From: a virus
Taxonomy: Duplodnaviria > Caudoviricetes
Length of the DNA: 64,000 nucleotides
IMG/VR virus record: IMGVR_UViG_3300014205_000172
Coordinates: 128,001-192,000 of that record
Reading direction: 5' to 3' (one strand)
Under the pieces are notes generated by a model. The model made no database searches. It was not told the origin of the DNA and saw only the letters and a list, made by a program, of their open reading frames with translations. Below are positions 26,385 to 39,864 of this stretch, in pieces. How positions within the stretch are numbered: position 1 is the first letter of the stretch; every line of letters starts with the position of its first letter. A program made the translations under genes and the position numbers.

Positions 26385-26792
26385 ATGCGTCCAAATCACA
26401 AAGCTATCTATTCTTCCCGCACTGCTGACAAGTTTGTACTGCGCCTCCCTGATGGCATGCGCGAAGTAGTTGCCGAAGCCGCCCGTGCGAATCATCGGAG
26501 CATGAACTCTGAATTGATTTCTCGGATTGAAACAAGCCTCATGGAAGATGAGAAGAAAAACAACCCGGCCATTCACATTGATACAGGTTCCGGCGTGACC
26601 ATGCCTGTAGTCGATGCCTGGACTCCGCGCATTGGCATGCTGATCTGCTTTCGCCTGGACATTAAGAAGGTAGGTAACATCCTGGACTTTGAGACGGCCG
26701 ATGACGGCACCATCTGGGCTGACTTGGATCTGCTTGACGGTAATCAAGTAAGCGCTCCGATCAGTCATCTCCAACCTTTCGTTTGCACGTAA
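26385..26792 (+). CDS. amrZ: Arc-family ribbon-helix-helix regulator, AmrZ (AlgZ) homologue with a different C-terminal domain
   Basis: MRP..YSSRTADKFVLRLPDGMRE..A..AR..HRSMNSE closely matches the Pseudomonas AmrZ N-domain; AAGGA SD. Confidence 0.88.
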   Translation: MRPNHKAIYSSRTADKFVLRLPDGMREVVAEAARANHRSMNSELISRIETSLMEDEKKNNPAIHIDTGSGVTMPVVDAWTPRIGMLICFRLDIKKVGNILDFETADDGTIWADLDLLDGNQVSAPISHLQPFVCT

Positions 26793-28298: not shown

Positions 28299-28544
28299 AT
28301 GCAACAGACTAAAGTTGCGTCATTAATAGAAACGGTGTTTGGCACGGCAGCTGGTCTGATCGTTGGCGTCCTTACACAGCTCGTGATATTTCCTTGGTAC
28401 GGCATCAACGTCCAGTTTCACGATAACCTTTCCATGGTAGTGATCTTTGCCGCCGTTGGCATGGTTCGGACATACGGCGTACGCCGACTCTTCAACGCAG
28501 CCCCTTGGCGCAAATTTAAGGAACGTAGAAATGCGAGCAATTGA
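28299..28544 (+). CDS. Small two-TM phage membrane protein
   Basis: SLIE..LVIFP.YG..RTYGVRRLFN pattern common in phages; AAGGA SD. Confidence 0.75.
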   Translation: MQQTKVASLIETVFGTAAGLIVGVLTQLVIFPWYGINVQFHDNLSMVVIFAAVGMVRTYGVRRLFNAAPWRKFKERRNASN

Positions 28545-30765
28545 TAGTCAGTACAAAGACATTTATCGCTTCATTAATCAACACGGCCTGGACAAAGGCG
28601 ACCGCACTGGCGTGGGTACTCTTTCTGCGCTGGCTGGTTGGATGCGTCATGACCTGCGTGATAACCGTCTGCCGATTACCTCTCTGCGCGTTATCCGACC
28701 AGAGAAGTTCATCCACGAAATGCTCTGGTTCGTGTCGGGCAGCTCCAGCATCAAGTACCTGAAAGACAACAACGTCGGCATCTGGGACAGCTGGTTCATC
28801 CCTGGTACTGACAAGTATGAAGAGCCCGTACCTTACACAGTTGACGAACTGGCCAACATGTACGTCGACGTACATGGCGTCATGCCGTTCACGATTCTGT
28901 TTCAGGCAGTTCCGGCTAAGCCTTCTTTTGAAGAGCTGCAGTCGGCGCTCATCCTTTCGGGCATTCCAAAACGTTACTGGCAGACAATGATCGAAGATGA
29001 GTTCTCCGGTAAGGAATATCCGGTCGATCCTCAAGATCTTGAGATTAATGTCAGGAACGGTGCTTTGAAGGTCACCATGACTCGTTTCCAGGGCGTTCTG
29101 CTCTGCTGCTCGATCATGAAGGATTTGGGTTGCGGCTACATCAATCCAAAAGCCGGCGGTCCAAACCGTCCTATGTACGATGTAATGGTTGATGTCCTCA
29201 ACAAGTTTGCAACACAGCCTGGGTATGTCAGTAACGGTCAAGAAATAGCCGCTAAAACAAAGATCGATCTTTTTAATGATCTGGTTTTCTGTATGGGGGT
29301 TGATCAAGGCACCGACATAGAGGAAGAGCAGTATGCCAGAAGCGTCCTGGCTAAACTGAGTCCCGAAGAAGAAACTACTTATCGCGAACTGGCGGCCAAA
29401 GCGGGCGTTTCGACTACCGTAGTGCCCACGCCAACGGTACTTGGCTTCCGCGAGCGTATCAAGAAAGCCCATGCTCAAGGTCTGGAACAAAAGCTGTACG
29501 AGTTCTGCGATTATAAAGAAGGTCTGGTTCGGGATACAACCAGTAACATGTACGCCGAGTTGAACGTCGAACTCTGTCCGTCGATCACTGGTCCGTGGGA
29601 CTTGTTCCAGTCCGAAGTTGACCAAATCAATGACTGGCTGACAAAGCACAACGTTCCTTCTGAAATCACACACCCTGCTGTGAAGCCTGTATCCCTCCAG
29701 ACTCGCCTCAATCGTGTCTCCAAGAACGATAAAGAAAAGTGGGACAAGATCAACGCAGTGATCGACGAACCGTGGGAGAACCTTGCAGAGAGCACCACAG
29801 GTAAGTCCATCCTGGAAGCGGGTGAACTTGTTAAGATTGAGATCTTCAAAGACGGTAAGTTCCAGAAGGTCGAAATCCGCAACATCGTGGCGGCTTGCTT
29901 GCACATCACTCTTACTGAACTGGGTATCAATCAGTACAAGCTGATTGACGCCGACATTGGTAAGGGCGCTTACGGCCCGCAATGGCGTCACTATCAAGAT
30001 ACACAGATTGTGGACGTATCCGAGATGGCTGCGTTTAAAGAGAAGGGTTACGGTTATATCACCGAAGTTACCGAGGGTGATAATGGAGACGGTTTCTACG
30101 GAAAGGCCGTCATGCATCGAGAAATCGATCAGCTGCAGAATGCTATCGATCTGCTCAAGAAGGACCCGGACAGTCGGCGCATCTACGTGACTTCCTGCAA
30201 CCCAGGTACTAACTGGCAAGCAGCGCTGGAACCATGCCATCTGTACTTCCAGTTCGTCAGCTACGAGAAAGACCTGCGTGACTTCGAAGAAGACTTTGCC
30301 AAGCTTGACCTGACTGGCGAATACATCGATGCGTTCTCGGCCAGTGACTTGTCTCATAGCGATGAAGATCGTGATGAAGATGAGTTCCTTAAGCTAGCGA
30401 AGGAGTTTGCCGCCAGCAAAGGCGTCCCTACTCGCTGGCTCAGTATCGCAGTAGTACTACGTAGTTGGGACGTCCCAGCCGGCGGGGTCTTTAACACACC
30501 TCAATACGCGGTGCTGACCCGCATGGTTGCTGAGGTGGTCGGCATGGAAGCCCGTGAGATGTTTATCATGGGTGTAGATAGCCACATTTATGAAAACCAA
30601 AAGGAGCTCGTTGACGAAGTCATCTACACTGACTATCAAAACGATAATCCTCAACTGCACATCACGCGCAAGGTTACCAACATCAGCGATTTCAAAATCG
30701 ATGACTTCGTAATCACCGGGTACGATCCAGTGCCAAACACGAAGGTGATGCCGATCGCGCGTTAA
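28531..30765 (+). CDS. thyA: Thymidylate synthase (ThyA) with very large insertions, 744 aa
   Basis: DRTGVGT, EMLWF, IWDSW, YGPQWR, IDQL, PDSRR, LEPCH (catalytic Cys), RSWD, FN, DSHIYENQ motifs. Confidence 0.93.
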   Translation: MRAIDSQYKDIYRFINQHGLDKGDRTGVGTLSALAGWMRHDLRDNRLPITSLRVIRPEKFIHEMLWFVSGSSSIKYLKDNNVGIWDSWFIPGTDKYEEPVPYTVDELANMYVDVHGVMPFTILFQAVPAKPSFEELQSALILSGIPKRYWQTMIEDEFSGKEYPVDPQDLEINVRNGALKVTMTRFQGVLLCCSIMKDLGCGYINPKAGGPNRPMYDVMVDVLNKFATQPGYVSNGQEIAAKTKIDLFNDLVFCMGVDQGTDIEEEQYARSVLAKLSPEEETTYRELAAKAGVSTTVVPTPTVLGFRERIKKAHAQGLEQKLYEFCDYKEGLVRDTTSNMYAELNVELCPSITGPWDLFQSEVDQINDWLTKHNVPSEITHPAVKPVSLQTRLNRVSKNDKEKWDKINAVIDEPWENLAESTTGKSILEAGELVKIEIFKDGKFQKVEIRNIVAACLHITLTELGINQYKLIDADIGKGAYGPQWRHYQDTQIVDVSEMAAFKEKGYGYITEVTEGDNGDGFYGKAVMHREIDQLQNAIDLLKKDPDSRRIYVTSCNPGTNWQAALEPCHLYFQFVSYEKDLRDFEEDFAKLDLTGEYIDAFSASDLSHSDEDRDEDEFLKLAKEFAASKGVPTRWLSIAVVLRSWDVPAGGVFNTPQYAVLTRMVAEVVGMEAREMFIMGVDSHIYENQKELVDEVIYTDYQNDNPQLHITRKVTNISDFKIDDFVITGYDPVPNTKVMPIAR

Positions 30766-31972: not shown

Positions 31973-32410
31973 ATGATGCCGTCTGTAACGTATATCCCTC
32001 GTCTGTTTGTTGGTCGGCTCACTGGTGAGTATTCATTGCTCAGCATTGGCGATCCCAATCAAGAAGACGAGTTTGCAAAAAGCCACCCCGGTCGACACCG
32101 CTTGGAGATTGACGATGTCGAAGAGTTGATCGATAACTCTTACGTCATGTTCGATTACCTGAAGGCGCTGAAGGTTCTTGTGTGGCTCGAAGATCAAGGT
32201 GATAAGGATATCGTCATTCACTGCGAAGCGGGTATCAGCCGTTCTGCAGCAGTGGCAAAGTTCATGGTTGAGCATCTGGGGTATACGCTTAAACCCCATG
32301 GTGATCTCAAGACTGACATGGTCGGTTATAACGTGCTGGTCTTCCGTCAATTGCTCATCGCCCAGCTAGACCGAGTAAAGACAAAACTGGTTCAAGTAAA
32401 GGAGAAGTAA
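31973..32410 (+). CDS. Cys-based protein tyrosine / dual-specificity phosphatase
   Basis: IVIHCEAGISRSAAVA (HCx5R) signature; AGGAGG SD. Confidence 0.88.
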   Translation: MMPSVTYIPRLFVGRLTGEYSLLSIGDPNQEDEFAKSHPGRHRLEIDDVEELIDNSYVMFDYLKALKVLVWLEDQGDKDIVIHCEAGISRSAAVAKFMVEHLGYTLKPHGDLKTDMVGYNVLVFRQLLIAQLDRVKTKLVQVKEK

Positions 32411-33818: not shown

Positions 33819-34172
33819 ATGAGCCGTAATAAAGTTCGTAAACAACAAGCCGTTGAACGCCATAACGCACAGTACGTAATGCATCGCCAACTGGAAGAAT
33901 TGAACGCCAGAAGTGGTTTGCTTTTCGACCCTCAGGTTGGCCGCACTCCAGGTAAGTCCAAACCGGTATCGGAGATGCTGGCCGCTCAGACCGCTGAAGA
34001 CCCAGGTCTGGGACGTGGTCAAACTCGGCACATACTGACCGCCGAAGATATGGGCGGTATCGGACCAGATGACGGTGGCTTACGCCGCGGTGAGTTTGCT
34101 GTTGTATCGGCACTCACCCCTGCCGATAAGGCGGTACCGGCCGAAGTATTTGTAGCCACTCAGCCTGAATAA
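33819..34172 (+). CDS. Hypothetical protein with DnaB-like GGLRRGE segment
   Basis: AAGGA SD; 117 aa. Confidence 0.7.
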   Translation: MSRNKVRKQQAVERHNAQYVMHRQLEELNARSGLLFDPQVGRTPGKSKPVSEMLAAQTAEDPGLGRGQTRHILTAEDMGGIGPDDGGLRRGEFAVVSALTPADKAVPAEVFVATQPE

Positions 34173-34272: not shown

Positions 34273-34533
34273 ATGGAAACCATACGGGTCAATCGACATC
34301 GTCTATTAGTTGGGGATAGGTTTGTAATACCCAACGACAACGACCGGTTACTCTACGAGGTGCAGGGTAGCCATCCCGATTCTGGACTGCTAATTAGACG
34401 TATTAAACATGGTTGGTACGGCTACATGCACCTGGAATCTGGAGTGGTCATTGGTAGCGAGAAGGACAGTCCTTTAAAGGAGCTTACGACGATACCCTTA
34501 GTGGTCTTGATGAATGAAATGGACCTTGCGTAA
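34273..34533 (+). CDS. Hypothetical protein
   Basis: GAGG SD; 86 aa. Confidence 0.65.
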   Translation: METIRVNRHRLLVGDRFVIPNDNDRLLYEVQGSHPDSGLLIRRIKHGWYGYMHLESGVVIGSEKDSPLKELTTIPLVVLMNEMDLA

Positions 34534-34534
34534 A

Positions 34535-34568
34535 GCATACAGGCAGGGCATGTGCCCTGCCTGTATGC
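34535..34568. repeat. Palindrome, left boundary copy of direct repeat
   Basis: GCATACAGGCAGGGCA-TG-TGCCCTGCCTGTATGC; arms essentially identical to 37981-38015. Confidence 0.9.
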
Positions 34569-34595
34569 CGTATGCGTTAGATCGCTGTAAAAGTC

Positions 34596-34611
34596 TACAG
34601 CAATACATCAT
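34596..34611 (+). promoter_or_regulatory. Putative phage early promoter driving the microprotein array
   Basis: TACAGCAA-TACATCAT. Confidence 0.6.
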
Positions 34612-34639
34612 GGTAATAGAGAATACCCTGGAGGTATCT

Positions 34640-34885
34640 ATGGACAGGTCAAATATAGACAGAAAGAAAGAGTGGGCATCCAGCTTTTATTTGGATATAG
34701 AGTTAGGGCGTGAAACTGTTGATGATCATAGTAACTTCATGGGCGACTATAATTTTTCTGACGTGAAAGATGGTTACATCGTCGACGGCGTATATACCGA
34801 TAAGCCCGATTTTGATCTAATTCGTAAGGAGGACGCTGAGTTTGTAAACGAGTGCCACACTTTATTGAATTACACTCGGGAATAG
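34640..34885 (+). CDS. RKK microprotein 1 (81 aa)
   Basis: GGAGG SD; MDRSNIDRKK...C.TLLNYTRE. Confidence 0.8.
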   Translation: MDRSNIDRKKEWASSFYLDIELGRETVDDHSNFMGDYNFSDVKDGYIVDGVYTDKPDFDLIRKEDAEFVNECHTLLNYTRE

Positions 34886-34890
34886 TATCA

Positions 34891-35133
34891 ATGAATACAA
34901 GCATGGATAGAAAGAAATGGACGGCTATTGCCGGGACATACGAAGATGAAACGGGTAGACAAACCCACTCCTCAGAAAGTAACCTAATGGGGGATTATTC
35001 GTTAGTTACCGGCGCCCAGTGGTACTACGTAGGTGGGATTTATACAACCAAACCAGATAATGACGACAGGCGAAGAGAAGACATCGTGTACGTGAAATCC
35101 AATTGTCAACTAAACGACTACACTCGGGAGTAA
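34891..35133 (+). CDS. RKK microprotein 2 (80 aa)
   Basis: MNTSMDRKK...SNLMGDY...CQLNDYTRE; clear paralogue of protein 1. Confidence 0.8.
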   Translation: MNTSMDRKKWTAIAGTYEDETGRQTHSSESNLMGDYSLVTGAQWYYVGGIYTTKPDNDDRRREDIVYVKSNCQLNDYTRE

Positions 35134-35138
35134 TTCCC

Positions 35139-35366
35139 ATGGCGTACGATAACCATAGAAAGAAAGCCATGCCTGGGGATTGGGCACCTCAATTAAGTGA
35201 CGGCGGGATGAGCGTCGACACAATAAGGGACAGTTATTACAATGACGGTAATCGCATAGAAGGCAATGGTCAGCTTGATCCGGATGTCCTAACCGAACCT
35301 AGAGAAATGGACCACATGAGACCATGCGGTACAGAACCGTTTAAGAGGGCTCATCATGGCAGCTGA
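35139..35366 (+). CDS. RKK microprotein 3 (75 aa)
   Basis: GGGAG SD; MAYDNHRKKAM...DPD...C..PFKR. Confidence 0.8.
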   Translation: MAYDNHRKKAMPGDWAPQLSDGGMSVDTIRDSYYNDGNRIEGNGQLDPDVLTEPREMDHMRPCGTEPFKRAHHGS

Positions 35367-35583
35367 CGTATACCGTAAAAAGAACTGCCCAGACACAAAT
35401 AGTTGGTTAGGTAATGACCAAGGCGGTGTTAAAAATATACGCATAACGGTTTGTCATATGGACGATGGTAACAGCCGATTAAGTTGTTTCGGCCGCGATC
35501 CGGAAACAATTAGAGTGCCGTATGATAGAAAATCATGCAGATCTATGCATGACTACCCGGTAGATAAAGAACATGTCGATTGA
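35356..35583 (+). CDS. RKK microprotein 4 (75 aa)
   Basis: GAGG SD; MAADVYRKK...DPE...C.SMHDY. Confidence 0.8.
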   Translation: MAADVYRKKNCPDTNSWLGNDQGGVKNIRITVCHMDDGNSRLSCFGRDPETIRVPYDRKSCRSMHDYPVDKEHVD

Positions 35584-35821
35584 TCAGCATCGTAAGAAAG
35601 CCATGCGGGGACGGAAGCCTGATGATGAGGGTGGTTATGGCACAATACCTGACGGCATTGGATATAATGACCAATGGTCGTTATCGACAGGCCATCCGGC
35701 TGATCGAACAGACCCAGATTTATTTAAGACCTCCTGGATCTTCGATGCTGAAATCGACAGGAAGGTCCAGGCTGGCAGAGCTCCGGGACATGGTGATTGT
35801 TGTGATTACACCCGGCCTTAA
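35573..35821 (+). CDS. RKK microprotein 5 (82 aa)
   Basis: MSIDQHRKKAM...DPD...CCDYTRP. Confidence 0.8.
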   Translation: MSIDQHRKKAMRGRKPDDEGGYGTIPDGIGYNDQWSLSTGHPADRTDPDLFKTSWIFDAEIDRKVQAGRAPGHGDCCDYTRP

Positions 35822-35832
35822 TGGAGTTGAAA

Positions 35833-36039
35833 ATGTTGGACATAACCCGTAAGAAATTTGCCGATCCGCGGGTTTCGTCACCAGACGGCGGCAGCGGCGC
35901 GATCGACAACGATAATGCCGTGTGTCCGTCGCGACCATTCCGGACAGAAGGTCACTTCGTCGATGGTGATCAATGTAGGTTTCATAAGGCCATGCTTGCC
36001 GTACACATAGGCGGCTACAAAGATTTTACAAAGTCGTAA
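35833..36039 (+). CDS. RKK microprotein 6 (68 aa)
   Basis: GGAG SD; MLDITRKK...KDFTKS. Confidence 0.75.
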   Translation: MLDITRKKFADPRVSSPDGGSGAIDNDNAVCPSRPFRTEGHFVDGDQCRFHKAMLAVHIGGYKDFTKS

Positions 36040-36086: not shown

Positions 36087-37193
36087 ATGAGTCTCAATTT
36101 CATTCCAGAACCTGTAAGTCAAACCCTGCTCGACAACATCAAGCGTTGGAACGATCAACTTCCATTGCTGCGAGGCGATAACATCTACGATATTTCACGC
36201 CTGTTCTTCTCCAGCAAAGGCTGGGATGCTCAACAGGCGCACCTCACCGCTGACATCGCTCACGGCAAGACTGGTGGTGAGAACGATCGGCATATCCACA
36301 AAGTCGTTCTGGACGGCATCCTCAAACCTCAAGGTCTGCGTTTCATGCGTACCCTGATGGGTCGGCTCATCATCAACGAGGATGAAATCATCGGTGCCTT
36401 CGTCAATCCAAGCACCAGCGCCACTCAGGCCAAGTACGACGTCATCGGCACCGACGCGTTTGTCAACTATTTCCGCAATACTTTCAAAGAGCTGATCGAT
36501 ACAGGCGTTACGCCGCATCTGCGCCGTCTGACGCTGAGCGACAAAGCTATTACGACGACGATCGAAACGATCCCACCTATCGGCGTGATCAAAAACCAAA
36601 CTCTGTTCTACCCGTACTTTGGCCGTACGCCAGCAGAAGTCTGGGCAGCTTTCGCGAAGTCCAGGGCTAACGTCCTCGTTCTGATTGGCCCTCCGGGTAC
36701 CGGTAAGTCTAACTTCATCTTGCAGATGATGGATGCACGCGGCTGGGATGACAAGATCAGCATGATTGACCGTCAGGATGTTCTGCTGAACCCAGGGCTG
36801 TCCGATTACATCCGCAGCTGTCCGGCAGGATCTGTTGTAATCTGTGAAGATGCCGACCGCCTGCTGATGTCCCGCGATCTGGGTAACGACAACATGTCGG
36901 CCGTGCTTAACGCCGCTGAAGGCATTGTAAGTCGTGATGTGAAGATTATCTTCTCCACTAACCTGGAGTCGCTCTCCGGTACCGACGACGCACTTACACG
37001 CCCAGGTCGTTGCTTCGACGTGCTTCGTTTCGAACTTCTGTCGAAAGAACAGGCTTATGCTGTACGTGACATGATGGAGCTGGAGTCTGTGGACATGGAT
37101 GACAAAACCATGACCCTGGCGAAAGCTTTGAACTATCACGAAATGCACCAAGACCGTATCGTCAAGCGTTCGGGTGTCGGCTTCTCTCAGTAA
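36087..37193 (+). CDS. AAA+ ATPase
   Basis: Walker A GPPGTGKS, Walker B VICEDAD, STN sensor, ALTRPGR arginine finger. Confidence 0.92.
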   Translation: MSLNFIPEPVSQTLLDNIKRWNDQLPLLRGDNIYDISRLFFSSKGWDAQQAHLTADIAHGKTGGENDRHIHKVVLDGILKPQGLRFMRTLMGRLIINEDEIIGAFVNPSTSATQAKYDVIGTDAFVNYFRNTFKELIDTGVTPHLRRLTLSDKAITTTIETIPPIGVIKNQTLFYPYFGRTPAEVWAAFAKSRANVLVLIGPPGTGKSNFILQMMDARGWDDKISMIDRQDVLLNPGLSDYIRSCPAGSVVICEDADRLLMSRDLGNDNMSAVLNAAEGIVSRDVKIIFSTNLESLSGTDDALTRPGRCFDVLRFELLSKEQAYAVRDMMELESVDMDDKTMTLAKALNYHEMHQDRIVKRSGVGFSQ

Positions 37194-37198
37194 CGATA

Positions 37199-37232
37199 CA
37201 TACAGGGCGGGTGTAATCCCGCCCTATTATTT
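37199..37232 (+). terminator. Hairpin (CATA-type variant)
   Basis: CATACAGGGCGGG-TGTAAT-CCCGCCCTATTATTT. Confidence 0.65.
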
Positions 37233-37241
37233 GAGGTGTTT

Positions 37242-37502
37242 ATGACAACTCCAGAACTGGAAACGCTTCGTAAATTACTGACTGGTTTGCTTGAAGCCAA
37301 GTGTGTACAGATTGGGGCTGCAAGCGACACACTTGGCCAGGTGTCTAAACTGAGCGGTATTGCACTTACTCAAATCTCAATCCTCTACCTGGGTGACATG
37401 AATAAGCTGTCTATGTCAACCATTGTCGAGATCGGTCGTTTTACAAACACACGGTTGCGCTATACGGTTGTGGCCGAAGCGGAATCACAAGGGCAGAACT
37501 AA
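37242..37502 (+). CDS. XRE/HTH_37-like helix-turn-helix protein
   Basis: TLGQVSKLSGIALTQISIL..G..KLSMSTI pattern; GAGG SD. Confidence 0.6.
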   Translation: MTTPELETLRKLLTGLLEAKCVQIGAASDTLGQVSKLSGIALTQISILYLGDMNKLSMSTIVEIGRFTNTRLRYTVVAEAESQGQN

Positions 37503-37972
37503 TGTCATTTATCAATAACCAAACTGGCGCGCCTATCCAAGAGACATCAATCTTGCTGGAGGTCGGCGTGCCTACTGGCATCACCGGTCGGACTTACTTG
37601 CTCAACGATAGTCTGCGTAAGGCTATCAGAGCACTCCAGGGTAAGAAGGTGTATATGGAGATGGGCGTTCCAAAGAACGGCGGCCTATCGCGCCCTGACT
37701 GGGCCAGTACTGTAAACAACGAACGCGTCTGTGGCGAGGCAAGCAACATCCGCTTGATCGAAAGTCGCCAATCACCAGGGTTGGCTGTAATCATCGGCGA
37801 TATCAAACCCCACGGCCCGTTCGGCGTAGTAATGCGCGACACCATCACCGGCGCTGATCAGGCGCATAACCACTTCAGCATTCGCGCTGCATGTCAATTA
37901 CCCGATCCGGAGAACGCTGACATTTTGTCGATCAGGCATCTTTATACTTTCGATTTGATTGCCCGTAAGTAA
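37502..37972 (+). CDS. Degenerate prohead-protease (T4 gp21 / phiKZ gp175-like) paralogue
   Basis: GRTY, MEMGVP, ERVC, IKPHGPFG, FSIR, TFDLI follow the protease motif order; the His motifs are substituted. Confidence 0.6.
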   Translation: MSFINNQTGAPIQETSILLEVGVPTGITGRTYLLNDSLRKAIRALQGKKVYMEMGVPKNGGLSRPDWASTVNNERVCGEASNIRLIESRQSPGLAVIIGDIKPHGPFGVVMRDTITGADQAHNHFSIRAACQLPDPENADILSIRHLYTFDLIARK

Positions 37973-37980
37973 CATTTCTA

Positions 37981-38015
37981 GCATACAGGCAGGGCGTAAA
38001 TGCCCTGCCTGTATG
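37981..38015. repeat. Palindrome, right boundary copy of direct repeat
   Basis: GCATACAGGCAGGGCG-TAAA-TGCCCTGCCTGTATG. Confidence 0.9.
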
Positions 38016-38730: not shown

Positions 38731-39864
38731 ATGCCCCTGATTATTACCGATAATGACACCAACTACTTGGTGCAGGATATCAACCTCGCTCGTAAGGTTG
38801 AGGCCCTGCCACCCGCTGTTTATAACCTGGTGATGTCCGAAGAAGGCCCTCGGTTGTTTAAAGGCCGTACCAAGTTCGATATTCCAAAAGACCCGCTGGG
38901 TGATCACAACACCATTCGCGATCTGATCATCAGCGACTACAACAGCACAACCTCGCCTGTCGGCGTGATCTTGGTCGGTCTGAAAGGTTCTGGTAAAACC
39001 ATGCTGTCAGAAGATCTCTGCAATCTGGTCATCGACTCCGGCCGCTGCATCCTCAATATCACTACGCCGCTGTCAGGCAGTCTGATCTCCACCATCATCA
39101 ATCTGCTAGGCCCATGCGCCGTAATGTTCGACGAGTTCGGTAAAGTGTATTCCGAAAGCGAAGAACGTAACAGCGTACTGACGTTGTTCAGCGACAGTGA
39201 AAAGCGTAACATCCTGTTCATCGTCACAGCCAACAGCGAACGTGAATTTGTTGACGCCATGCTGAACCGCCCAGGTCGTTTCAAATACCGTATCAACTAC
39301 GACGGTATCAAAGAAGCCACCATCATCGAAGCGTTGGCCAACCCGAAGCACAGCCCTGAACTGGTGGAATACCTTCGCATGTATTCGCAGTACCACGCCA
39401 TCAGCTTCGACATGCTGCTTCTGATGAAGAAGCTGTTGGCCAAGTGCGTAACGCCCGCGGACTTCGTCAACAAGATCGAATTCTACAACCTGCCGGCCAA
39501 AGTCAATGTCCGTTACACCGTTAAGGACGTGACGTACAACAACAGCACCACTGATTATCGCGGATGGTTGGATCAGAGCGAAGAAGGTCTGCTGACCCTG
39601 GAACTGACCGAAAACAAAACTGGTGCCGTGGTCTACAGCCAACCGCTGGTGTGGGCGACGGTTGATAAAGTCAAGCGTGGCATTGTCTGGCAGCTGAAAA
39701 TTGACGAGGGTCTGAAGATCAGCGTCGAACGTGATGTTACTGAGCATGTATTTAAAGTACGTGCTCGCGATGCCACCGGCGGGAACAAACATCACTTCAG
39801 CCATCCGGATGAAGATATCGAGTATAAGAACCCCGGGTATCCGCAATCAGTCAAGCAGTTCTAA
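38731..39864 (+). CDS. AAA+ ATPase
   Basis: GLKGSGKT, VMFDEF, TAN, NRPGRF motifs. Confidence 0.9.
   Translation: MPLIITDNDTNYLVQDINLARKVEALPPAVYNLVMSEEGPRLFKGRTKFDIPKDPLGDHNTIRDLIISDYNSTTSPVGVILVGLKGSGKTMLSEDLCNLVIDSGRCILNITTPLSGSLISTIINLLGPCAVMFDEFGKVYSESEERNSVLTLFSDSEKRNILFIVTANSEREFVDAMLNRPGRFKYRINYDGIKEATIIEALANPKHSPELVEYLRMYSQYHAISFDMLLLMKKLLAKCVTPADFVNKIEFYNLPAKVNVRYTVKDVTYNNSTTDYRGWLDQSEEGLLTLELTENKTGAVVYSQPLVWATVDKVKRGIVWQLKIDEGLKISVERDVTEHVFKVRARDATGGNKHHFSHPDEDIEYKNPGYPQSVKQF

Follow-up and report, generated by a model that had tools for sequence, protein, structure and literature searches.

What do six small, tightly packed genes of a jumbo phage code for, and which partner would read the element that they share? 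The question is raised by a 64,000-nucleotide (nt) stretch of DNA (the window; positions 128,001 to 192,000 of the IMG/VR virus record IMGVR_UViG_3300014205_000172), in which consecutive open reading frames (ORFs) at 34640-36039 code for microproteins with an Arg-Lys-Lys (RKK) motif near the N-terminus and are followed by the gene of an AAA+ ATPase. A sequence-only reading, made without database searches, had taken them for an operon of six paralogues with fixed ends and hypervariable centres. We found a real and apparently undescribed protein array, which combines a conserved tag, exchange of alleles and a conserved ATPase partner gene. The 237-kb virus record that contains the window (G000) codes for chimallin (G000:94026-95981; phrog_4795, E 3e-35; PF25677, 27.3 bits, just above the cut-off of 27) and for a phiKZ-type S80 prohead protease (G000:55559-56152), so the phage is a nucleus-forming jumbo phage, with the chimallin gene typical of the Chimalliviridae.

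The six genes of 68-82 amino acids (aa) lie on the same strand, with gaps of 5, 5 and 11 nt and two junctions that overlap by 11 nt, which agrees with the tight packing first described. Related loci carry L numbers, and the window clade is defined as the window together with L001 and L005-L017. The genes of the array are as follows.

34640-34885, + strand: RKK microprotein g1, 81 aa, net charge -10; ratio of nonsynonymous to synonymous substitution rates (dN/dS) 0.09-0.45; AlphaFold mean predicted local distance difference test (pLDDT) 50, predicted template modelling score (pTM) 0.18.
34891-35133, + strand: RKK microprotein g2, 80 aa; a recent paralogue with 42% identity to g1; missing in L007, L009 and L013-L017.
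35139-35366, + strand: RKK microprotein g3, 75 aa; recombinant alleles in L005/L006.
35356-35583, + strand: RKK microprotein g4, 75 aa; deeply divergent allele, with 46-50% identity to the alleles of L001, L007, L010 and L014.
35573-35821, + strand: RKK microprotein g5, 82 aa; extended by a frameshift in L009, L013 and L016.
35833-36039, + strand: RKK microprotein g6, 68 aa; absent from L009, L010 and L013-L017.

For g6 there is an alternative ATG at 35821, which would give 72 aa; the orthologues begin at 35833. Copy number varies across related phages, with 4, 6 or 7 RKK genes per array in the window clade and 4-8 modules over all lineages. The frameshifted g5 orthologue has 99 aa and ends 1 nt before the ATPase start, and this form may be a natural near-fusion or an assembly variant. 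An extra RKK gene of 63 aa heads the arrays of L001 (3334-3525), L007 (4102-4293) and L010 (4563-4754); the window is without it.

In all six genes the Arg of RKK is residue 6-8 and an Asp stands 1-4 residues earlier, much as had been read from the letters; the central [KD]P[DE] motif was likewise recovered in five of the six proteins, and four end in [DN][YF]T[RK]x. It turned out that the 237-kb genome contains 7 ORFs of 55-130 aa with RKK in the first 13 residues, and the array supplies 6 of them, at a chance rate of about 9e-4 per gene as estimated from the RKK frequency in long ORFs. A chance origin of the shared motif is excluded. Statistics for the family were taken from 39 representative members, with 87 background ORFs of the genome as controls. 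The tag has the form D-x-x-R-K-K, in which Arg occupies positions 4-11 (mostly 6-9) and Asp stands at -3 relative to RKK in 21 of 39 members, and the exact Asp(-3)+RKK tag was found in one background ORF (1 of 87).

The array genes are protein-coding and under purifying selection, and RKK is conserved as a peptide. Where measurable between orthologues of several related phages, dN/dS of the array genes is 0.05-0.46, and that of four flanking genes (86-aa protein, ATPase, helix-turn-helix (HTH) protein and protease-like protein) is 0.00-0.13. The Arg of RKK uses all six codons (AGA, CGT, CGC, CGA, CGG and AGG) and each Lys is AAA or AAG, so RKK is a tag at the level of the peptide. This synonymous variation of the motif, together with dN/dS below 0.5, rules out a non-coding repeat array (CRISPR- or TIGR-like) or an RNA family. 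Besides, Rfam and tRNA searches of the array gave no match, and no long DNA repeats were found in it, only short degenerate ones. Whole-gene positive selection (dN/dS > 1) was not found among the array genes, and the adenine-specific pattern of diversity-generating retroelements is not evident in the alignment of the window with L001, in which all types of change occur and synonymous sites are enriched.

The bodies of the RKK proteins are rich in Asp, Arg and Pro, poor in Leu and specific to each lineage. Asp is twice as frequent in the family as in other small ORFs, Arg 1.8 times as frequent and Leu half as frequent, and 38 of 39 members have a FoldIndex below 0 vs 11 of 87 background ORFs, which bears out the diversified bodies of low hydrophobicity behind a conserved N-terminal element. 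The AlphaFold model of g1, built from a shallow alignment of 10 rows, has a pLDDT of about 50 and a pTM of 0.18. As far as such predictions go, the RKK microproteins are probably intrinsically disordered.

The picture of fixed ends and hypervariable centres holds in part. Between paralogues the centres are indeed hypervariable, but among positional orthologues of g1-g5 the 10 residues after RKK vary most (identity 0.20-0.50), while the centres keep a gene-specific scaffold (identity 0.44-0.66) with G-x-x-T, DG/GD, [DK]PD and D-x-x-R. The DYT-like C-terminus stands for four of the six proteins but is no hallmark of the family, as a D/N-[YFW]-T ending was found in 13 of 39 representative members; similarly, the Cys in the last third, though present in all six, is missing in 12 of 39 close orthologues. 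The constancy of the C-terminus is partly a constraint of gene packing, because the YTRE codons of g1 and g2 overlap the purine-rich ribosome-binding region of the following gene and the C-terminal ends of g3 and g4 overlap the next start codon. Beyond RKK, g1 and g2 are clearly paralogous (z = 24) and the signal within g3/g4/g5 is modest (z = 3.3; held-out hidden Markov model (HMM) scores of up to 22 bits vs a shuffle 99th percentile of about 6), but paralogy was not demonstrable for g6, nor between g1/g2 and the remaining genes, so the description as six paralogues is only partly sustained. When the window-clade HMM without RKK was run on other lineages, the best scores were 6-9 bits (shuffle maximum 8.4); homology between lineages therefore rests on motif, position and composition.

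The high divergence of the array stems from old alleles exchanged by recombination, which moved gene by gene between related phages with crossovers at conserved junctions. For instance, the ATPases of the window and L001 are 98% identical, and synonymous divergence (dS) between the two is 0.19-0.33 in the flanks, g1, g5 and g6 and saturated in g2 and g4. In g4, L001 has 79% identity to L014 (L014 ATPase, 88%) and 50% to the window. DNA identity is 94-100% at the g3/g4 and g4/g5 junctions and 37-65% inside g4, and g3 of L005/L006 is chimeric, with one half of L001 type and the other of window type. Swapping of alleles gene by gene would be the pattern expected of host- or competitor-facing genes.

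To which gene is the array linked? Directly 3' of it lies the following gene.

36087-37193, + strand: AAA+ ATPase, 368 aa; phrog_14322, E 1e-100; homologue of phiKZ gp208, 38% identical.

RKK arrays of 4-8 modules are located directly 5' of the same ATPase in five lineages, with ATPase identity down to 47%, and a module is fused to the enzyme in two of them, so the linkage that the sequence-only reading had proposed to look for is conserved. L018 (ATPase 63%) has seven free RKK genes, three of them with variant tags, and one fused; L021 (59%) has four RKK genes and one untagged gene; L020/L026 (51%) have seven RKK genes and one fused; L031 (47%) has seven RKK genes of 73-116 aa. Four different sets of flanking genes surround the arrays, and L018 alone shares the neighbourhood of the window. 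In-frame fusion of the final RKK module to the ATPase was seen in L018 with its relatives (P0031-33, P0090, P0091) and in L020/L026 (P0038), and these fusions occupy two separate places on the ATPase tree. P0091 bears a different fused module, though its ATPase shares a 90% cluster with P0032. In AlphaFold models the fused module is mostly below pLDDT 50.

No RKK array was found beside 21 more distant AAA loci or phiKZ gp208, nor a second one in the 237-kb genome. Arrays apart from the ATPase were not found either, in a biased sample in which most loci were reached through ATPase homologues and arrays without the ATPase are under-sampled. Profile searches with the microproteins returned only members at ATPase-linked loci or close relatives, plus one repetitive chance match; a DNA pattern scan for the motif gave the known L018 array and unrelated matches only; and a search for the fused module in longer proteins, which is a weak test, gave only the ATPase fusions already in the query. 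On the ATPase tree (midpoint root, long outgroup branches, key fork support 91/78), RKK-positive lineages stand on several branches with the Phabio clade nested among them, which suggests an ancestral array whose tag was lost once. In L022 (ATPase 52%) the array is acidic and the tag is present only in traces.

An alpha/beta N-domain and one AAA domain at the C-terminus make up the ATPase; Walker A reads GPPGTGKS, Walker B is of the ED type, and the core is predicted by AlphaFold mostly at pLDDT > 90. Bcs1 and Bacillus subtilis YjoB are the best matches of the ATPase in both sequence and fold (Foldseek E 6e-12 and 6e-10, at a whole-chain template modelling (TM) score of only about 0.3), and YjoB has been described as a putative substrate-specific chaperone (PMC9565160). 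A chaperone or translocase activity of the phage enzyme may be supposed from its similarity in fold. Nineteen ATPase columns separate the RKK-positive lineages from the Phabio clade, including the acidic N-domain residues D23 and D67; these two were set aside, being 2 of 19 columns in a single contrast. A complex prediction of the ATPase (alignment A4) with g1 (A7) scored 0.01 vs a mark of 0.32, with the controls not folded, and it carries no weight either way.

Three elements outside the genes bear on the transcription of the array.

34596-34610, + strand: promoter-like motif TACAGCAATACATCA, which matches TACAG[CT][AC]ATACAT[CT]A.
37204-37225, + strand: terminator-like hairpin 3' of the ATPase, likely the end of the transcription unit.
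34530-34570, no strand assigned: GC-rich 15-bp hairpin 3' of the upstream 86-aa gene; fold z = -8.0.

The genome matches the pattern TACAG[CT][AC]ATACAT[CT]A at exactly 6 sites, each on the + strand with a start a few tens of nt further on, and 100 shuffles gave 0 matches. A site similar to TACAGCAATACATCA precedes the L018, L020 and L022 arrays, and TACAGCAATACATCA resembles both of the phiKZ/EL promoter cores, TATATTAC and TACATTATY (PMC7058600). It is probably a phage promoter-like motif of the early class, and the early-promoter-like site noticed at the outset can be kept. With this motif ahead of the array and a terminator-like hairpin behind the ATPase, everything from the promoter to the ATPase probably belongs to a single transcription unit. 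The hairpin at 34530-34570, which also appears terminator-like, belongs to a genome-wide intergenic GCATA...TATGC family with 6 further hairpins elsewhere in the genome, and a related hairpin is found 5' of the arrays in L001, L007, L010, L014, L018, L020, L021 and L022. Near-identical GC-rich palindromes at 34536-34570 and 37981-38015 flank the array, the ATPase, the HTH gene and the pseudoprotease. The hairpins at 34530 and 37981 were considered as ends of a mobile element and rejected; since the family is present at six other intergenic sites, the paired palindromes are probably terminators rather than element ends.

How might tag, bodies and ATPase work together? Our preferred reading, held tentatively and with a probability somewhat short of even, is that the RKK tag is read by the ATPase or its complex and that the disordered bodies are host-facing payloads. 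The ATPase or its complex is favoured as the partner because the linkage persists and the fusion recurred. The early operon would supply a set of disordered proteins (about 70-115 aa) and a Bcs1/YjoB-type AAA+ ATPase as one module, in which RKK would serve as a short linear docking or address motif for one conserved partner, most likely the ATPase ring or a complex containing it. The variable bodies would be interchangeable adaptors or effectors, which engage host proteins that differ between hosts and act in the first minutes of infection, and the fused module-ATPase form would be a permanently tethered adaptor. A role of RKK as a destruction tag for ATPase substrates seems less likely, because the fused enzyme would mark itself. 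A more specific version, which we regard as doubtful, is a tag-and-machine system: a Bcs1-like AAA ring would read RKK on exchangeable disordered adaptors or cargo, and would remodel, disarm or move host targets, or carry cargo through the vesicle of early infection or the shell of the phage nucleus. No tag-and-machine system of such kind was found in the literature searched.

Several observations weigh against the ATPase as reader of the tag. The ancestral ATPase start codon is retained behind the fused module, with a ribosome-binding site in L018, and co-regulation alone can yield both operon linkage and fusion through loss of a stop codon. In phiKZ, gp208 has no array and tolerates transposon insertion, so the ATPase family exists without RKK proteins, and in the Phabio-like clade (L027-L030) the ATPase keeps small Asp/Arg-rich neighbours that are without RKK. 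The low AlphaFold confidence of the microproteins rests on shallow alignments (10 rows for g1). As for gp208 itself, it was found in high-molecular-weight sedimentation fractions with unknown partners (PMC10914614), and viable phiKZ was isolated with a transposon in orf208 (bioRxiv 10.1101/2025.11.23.690004); both fit an accessory, condition-dependent module.

The tag could instead contact one conserved host surface, such as the ribosome or RNA, a host protease or chaperone, or an anionic membrane, with the bodies as independent effectors or decoys and the ATPase merely as a co-regulated early neighbour. The probable early class of the promoter motif agrees with this, ribosome-binding early proteins are known from phiKZ (PMC10914614), a basic tripeptide on an acidic disordered chain would suit polyanion binding, and the deep allelic lineages suggest host-facing selection. 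We consider this explanation unlikely, though one to be taken seriously: the array keeps its place beside the ATPase while the neighbourhood changes four times, the two are fused in two lineages, and no ATPase-free array was found, a negative that is biased by the way the loci were fetched. Rather unlikely, in our view, is that RKK is a capsid-targeting sequence (CTS), by which the microproteins and the fused ATPase would be packaged and injected, each to block a different host defence. The gene pattern is that of the T4 internal proteins IPI, IPII and IPIII, which are small, dispensable and divergent and share a conserved N-terminal tag of about 10 aa (PMC9958956; bioRxiv 10.1101/2022.04.14.488369), and the swapping of alleles fits an arms race. 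An S80 prohead-protease paralogue (37502-37972; PF20034, E 6.5e-9) also lies two genes 3' of the ATPase, but the His of its catalytic GHP is replaced, it matches the cryptic paralogues known in giant phages, e.g. SPN3US gp117 (PMC5694885), and no such gene was called beside the L020, L021 or L031 arrays. A cleavage motif S/A/G-x-E follows RKK within 25 aa in 13 of 39 members against 9.7 +/- 2.7 in shuffles, which is no enrichment, the motif being of phiKZ type and perhaps not this phage's. Nor was any other short ORF of the genome seen to carry an N-terminal RKK, in a survey that did not cover the large head proteins. Targeting to the capsid leaves the constant link to the ATPase unexplained.

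An effect in translation seems improbable. RKK would then act while the ribosome initiates or begins to elongate, for instance by keeping it stable ahead of a stretch of acidic residues, and the genes would be old tandem duplicates, weakly constrained and without a common partner. The nearly fixed distance of RKK from the start codon (Arg 4-11, mostly 6-9), the A-rich Lys codons ahead of Asp-rich bodies and the Phabio-clade arrays, which are alike in composition without the tag, could be explained in this way. An exact R-K-K with Asp at -3 (21 of 39) is, however, far more specific than composition effects require, the tag occurs in only 1 of 87 background ORFs, and the bodies keep position-specific scaffolds under purifying selection. 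Still further down, we see hardly any chance for ribosomally synthesised peptide precursors with leader, variable core and follower, an idea raised by the sequence-only reading. Conserved ends, interiors that vary and a tandem arrangement speak for it. Neither a modifying enzyme nor an active protease is annotated with the array in any of five contexts, where the AAA ATPase is the sole constant neighbour, the nearby S80 paralogue is without its catalytic His, and the C-terminal motif is present in only a third of members.

By analogy, the T4 internal-protein set may be regarded as the closest counterpart in gene logic. The internal-protein locus of T-even phages is polymorphic and early. In T4, IPI inhibits GmrSD, and IPIII is required on some hosts (PMC9958956; bioRxiv 10.1101/2022.04.14.488369). 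The RKK family is alike in having a short N-terminal tag on small divergent accessory proteins, but the motif differs and there is no sequence similarity to IPI/II/III or the CTS. Unlike the T4 proteins, it shows no enriched protease site after the tag, is acidic to neutral and predicted to be disordered, and is constantly linked to an AAA ATPase and in places fused with it, a feature that the T4 genes lack. Many unrelated, largely disordered cofactors dock to one ATPase through a short, often basic motif in the p97/Cdc48 system (VCP-binding motif (VBM) and VCP-interacting motif (VIM) cofactors) and in ClpX-SspB. These adaptor systems would work like the RKK array by analogy, with no homology; unlike them, the RKK candidates form a probably co-transcribed tandem array and are swapped as alleles, and their docking is putative. 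The window ATPase is a clear member of the phiKZ gp208/phrog_14322 ATPases, whereas phiKZ is without an upstream RKK array, and no paper describing a microprotein array or N-terminal module for these ATPases was found.

Phabio (PHABIO_302-306) and L028-L030 have runs of 75-100-aa Asp/Arg-rich genes beside the orthologous ATPase, which resemble the RKK arrays but lack RKK; some have a bare RK, those of Phabio have an R-[VS]-E-N-like motif, and they are annotated as hypothetical. In Phabio (L002 2025-3360), five genes of 82-92 aa with the R-[VS]-E-N-like motif are followed by an RNA ligase and the orthologous ATPase, and further small Asp/Arg-rich genes are found 3' of the ATPase (L002 6155-6894). 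L028-L030 contain arrays of 75-120-aa Asp/Arg-rich genes on both sides of the ATPase, without RKK, some of them with a bare RK near residue 11. The gene run of cultured Phabio is a possible testable counterpart of the RKK array.

Searches of Pfam, PHROGs (E 0.1), PADLOC and NCBIfam gave no family match for the RKK microproteins, and literature searches gave nothing on such microprotein arrays, so the family, which had not been recognised from the letters, stays unrecognised in these resources. One of 28 members matched CdiI (E 0.012), which was taken as chance. ESM Atlas features for g1 gave no match, nor did tblastn of g1 and g5 against 50,697 phage records, and tblastn/blastn led to no cultured phage that carries an RKK array. 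Most early genes of nucleus-forming phages lack both a function and a handle for study, and RKK, which stays while all other parts of these proteins are replaced, offers a precise, mutable entry point. No substrate is known for the gp208 ATPase family, and the array, as a constant neighbour, is a candidate for its partner. Should the ATPase prove to be the reader of the tag, the array would amount to a library of modular adaptors for taking over the host; should the tag instead direct packaging or targeting, it would correspond in jumbo phages to the capsid-targeting sequence of T4 and might serve as a tag for delivery. The exchange of alleles gene by gene marks the RKK proteins as likely determinants of host range or counter-defence.

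The surrounding genes give a hint of the host. The best matches of the window ATPase are Pseudomonas-phage proteins and, together with the following gene, hint at a Pseudomonas-like host.

26385-26792 of the window: Arc-domain (AmrZ-like) regulator, behind another copy of the array promoter motif (G000:154333).

On the 3' side of the ATPase, an 86-aa gene (37242-37502) with a weak Cro/C1-type HTH match (E 0.026) is kept throughout the window clade, and a second, different AAA ATPase (phrog_2376; 38731-39864) lies 1.5 kb downstream, syntenic in the window clade and L018. On the 5' side, the thymidylate synthase (28531-30765) is unusual and variable in length, with 744 aa in the window and 664, 740, 747 and 541 aa in L007, L009, L010 and L021. 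A small gene similar to dual-specificity phosphatases (31973-32410; PF00782, E 2e-6, under the cut-off) is syntenic 5' of the array in the window clade and L018. Two genes 5' of the array, a low-complexity ORF (33819-34172) differs in length through short internal repeats, having 117 aa in the window, 162 aa in L001 (2378-2866) and 82-151 aa in others.

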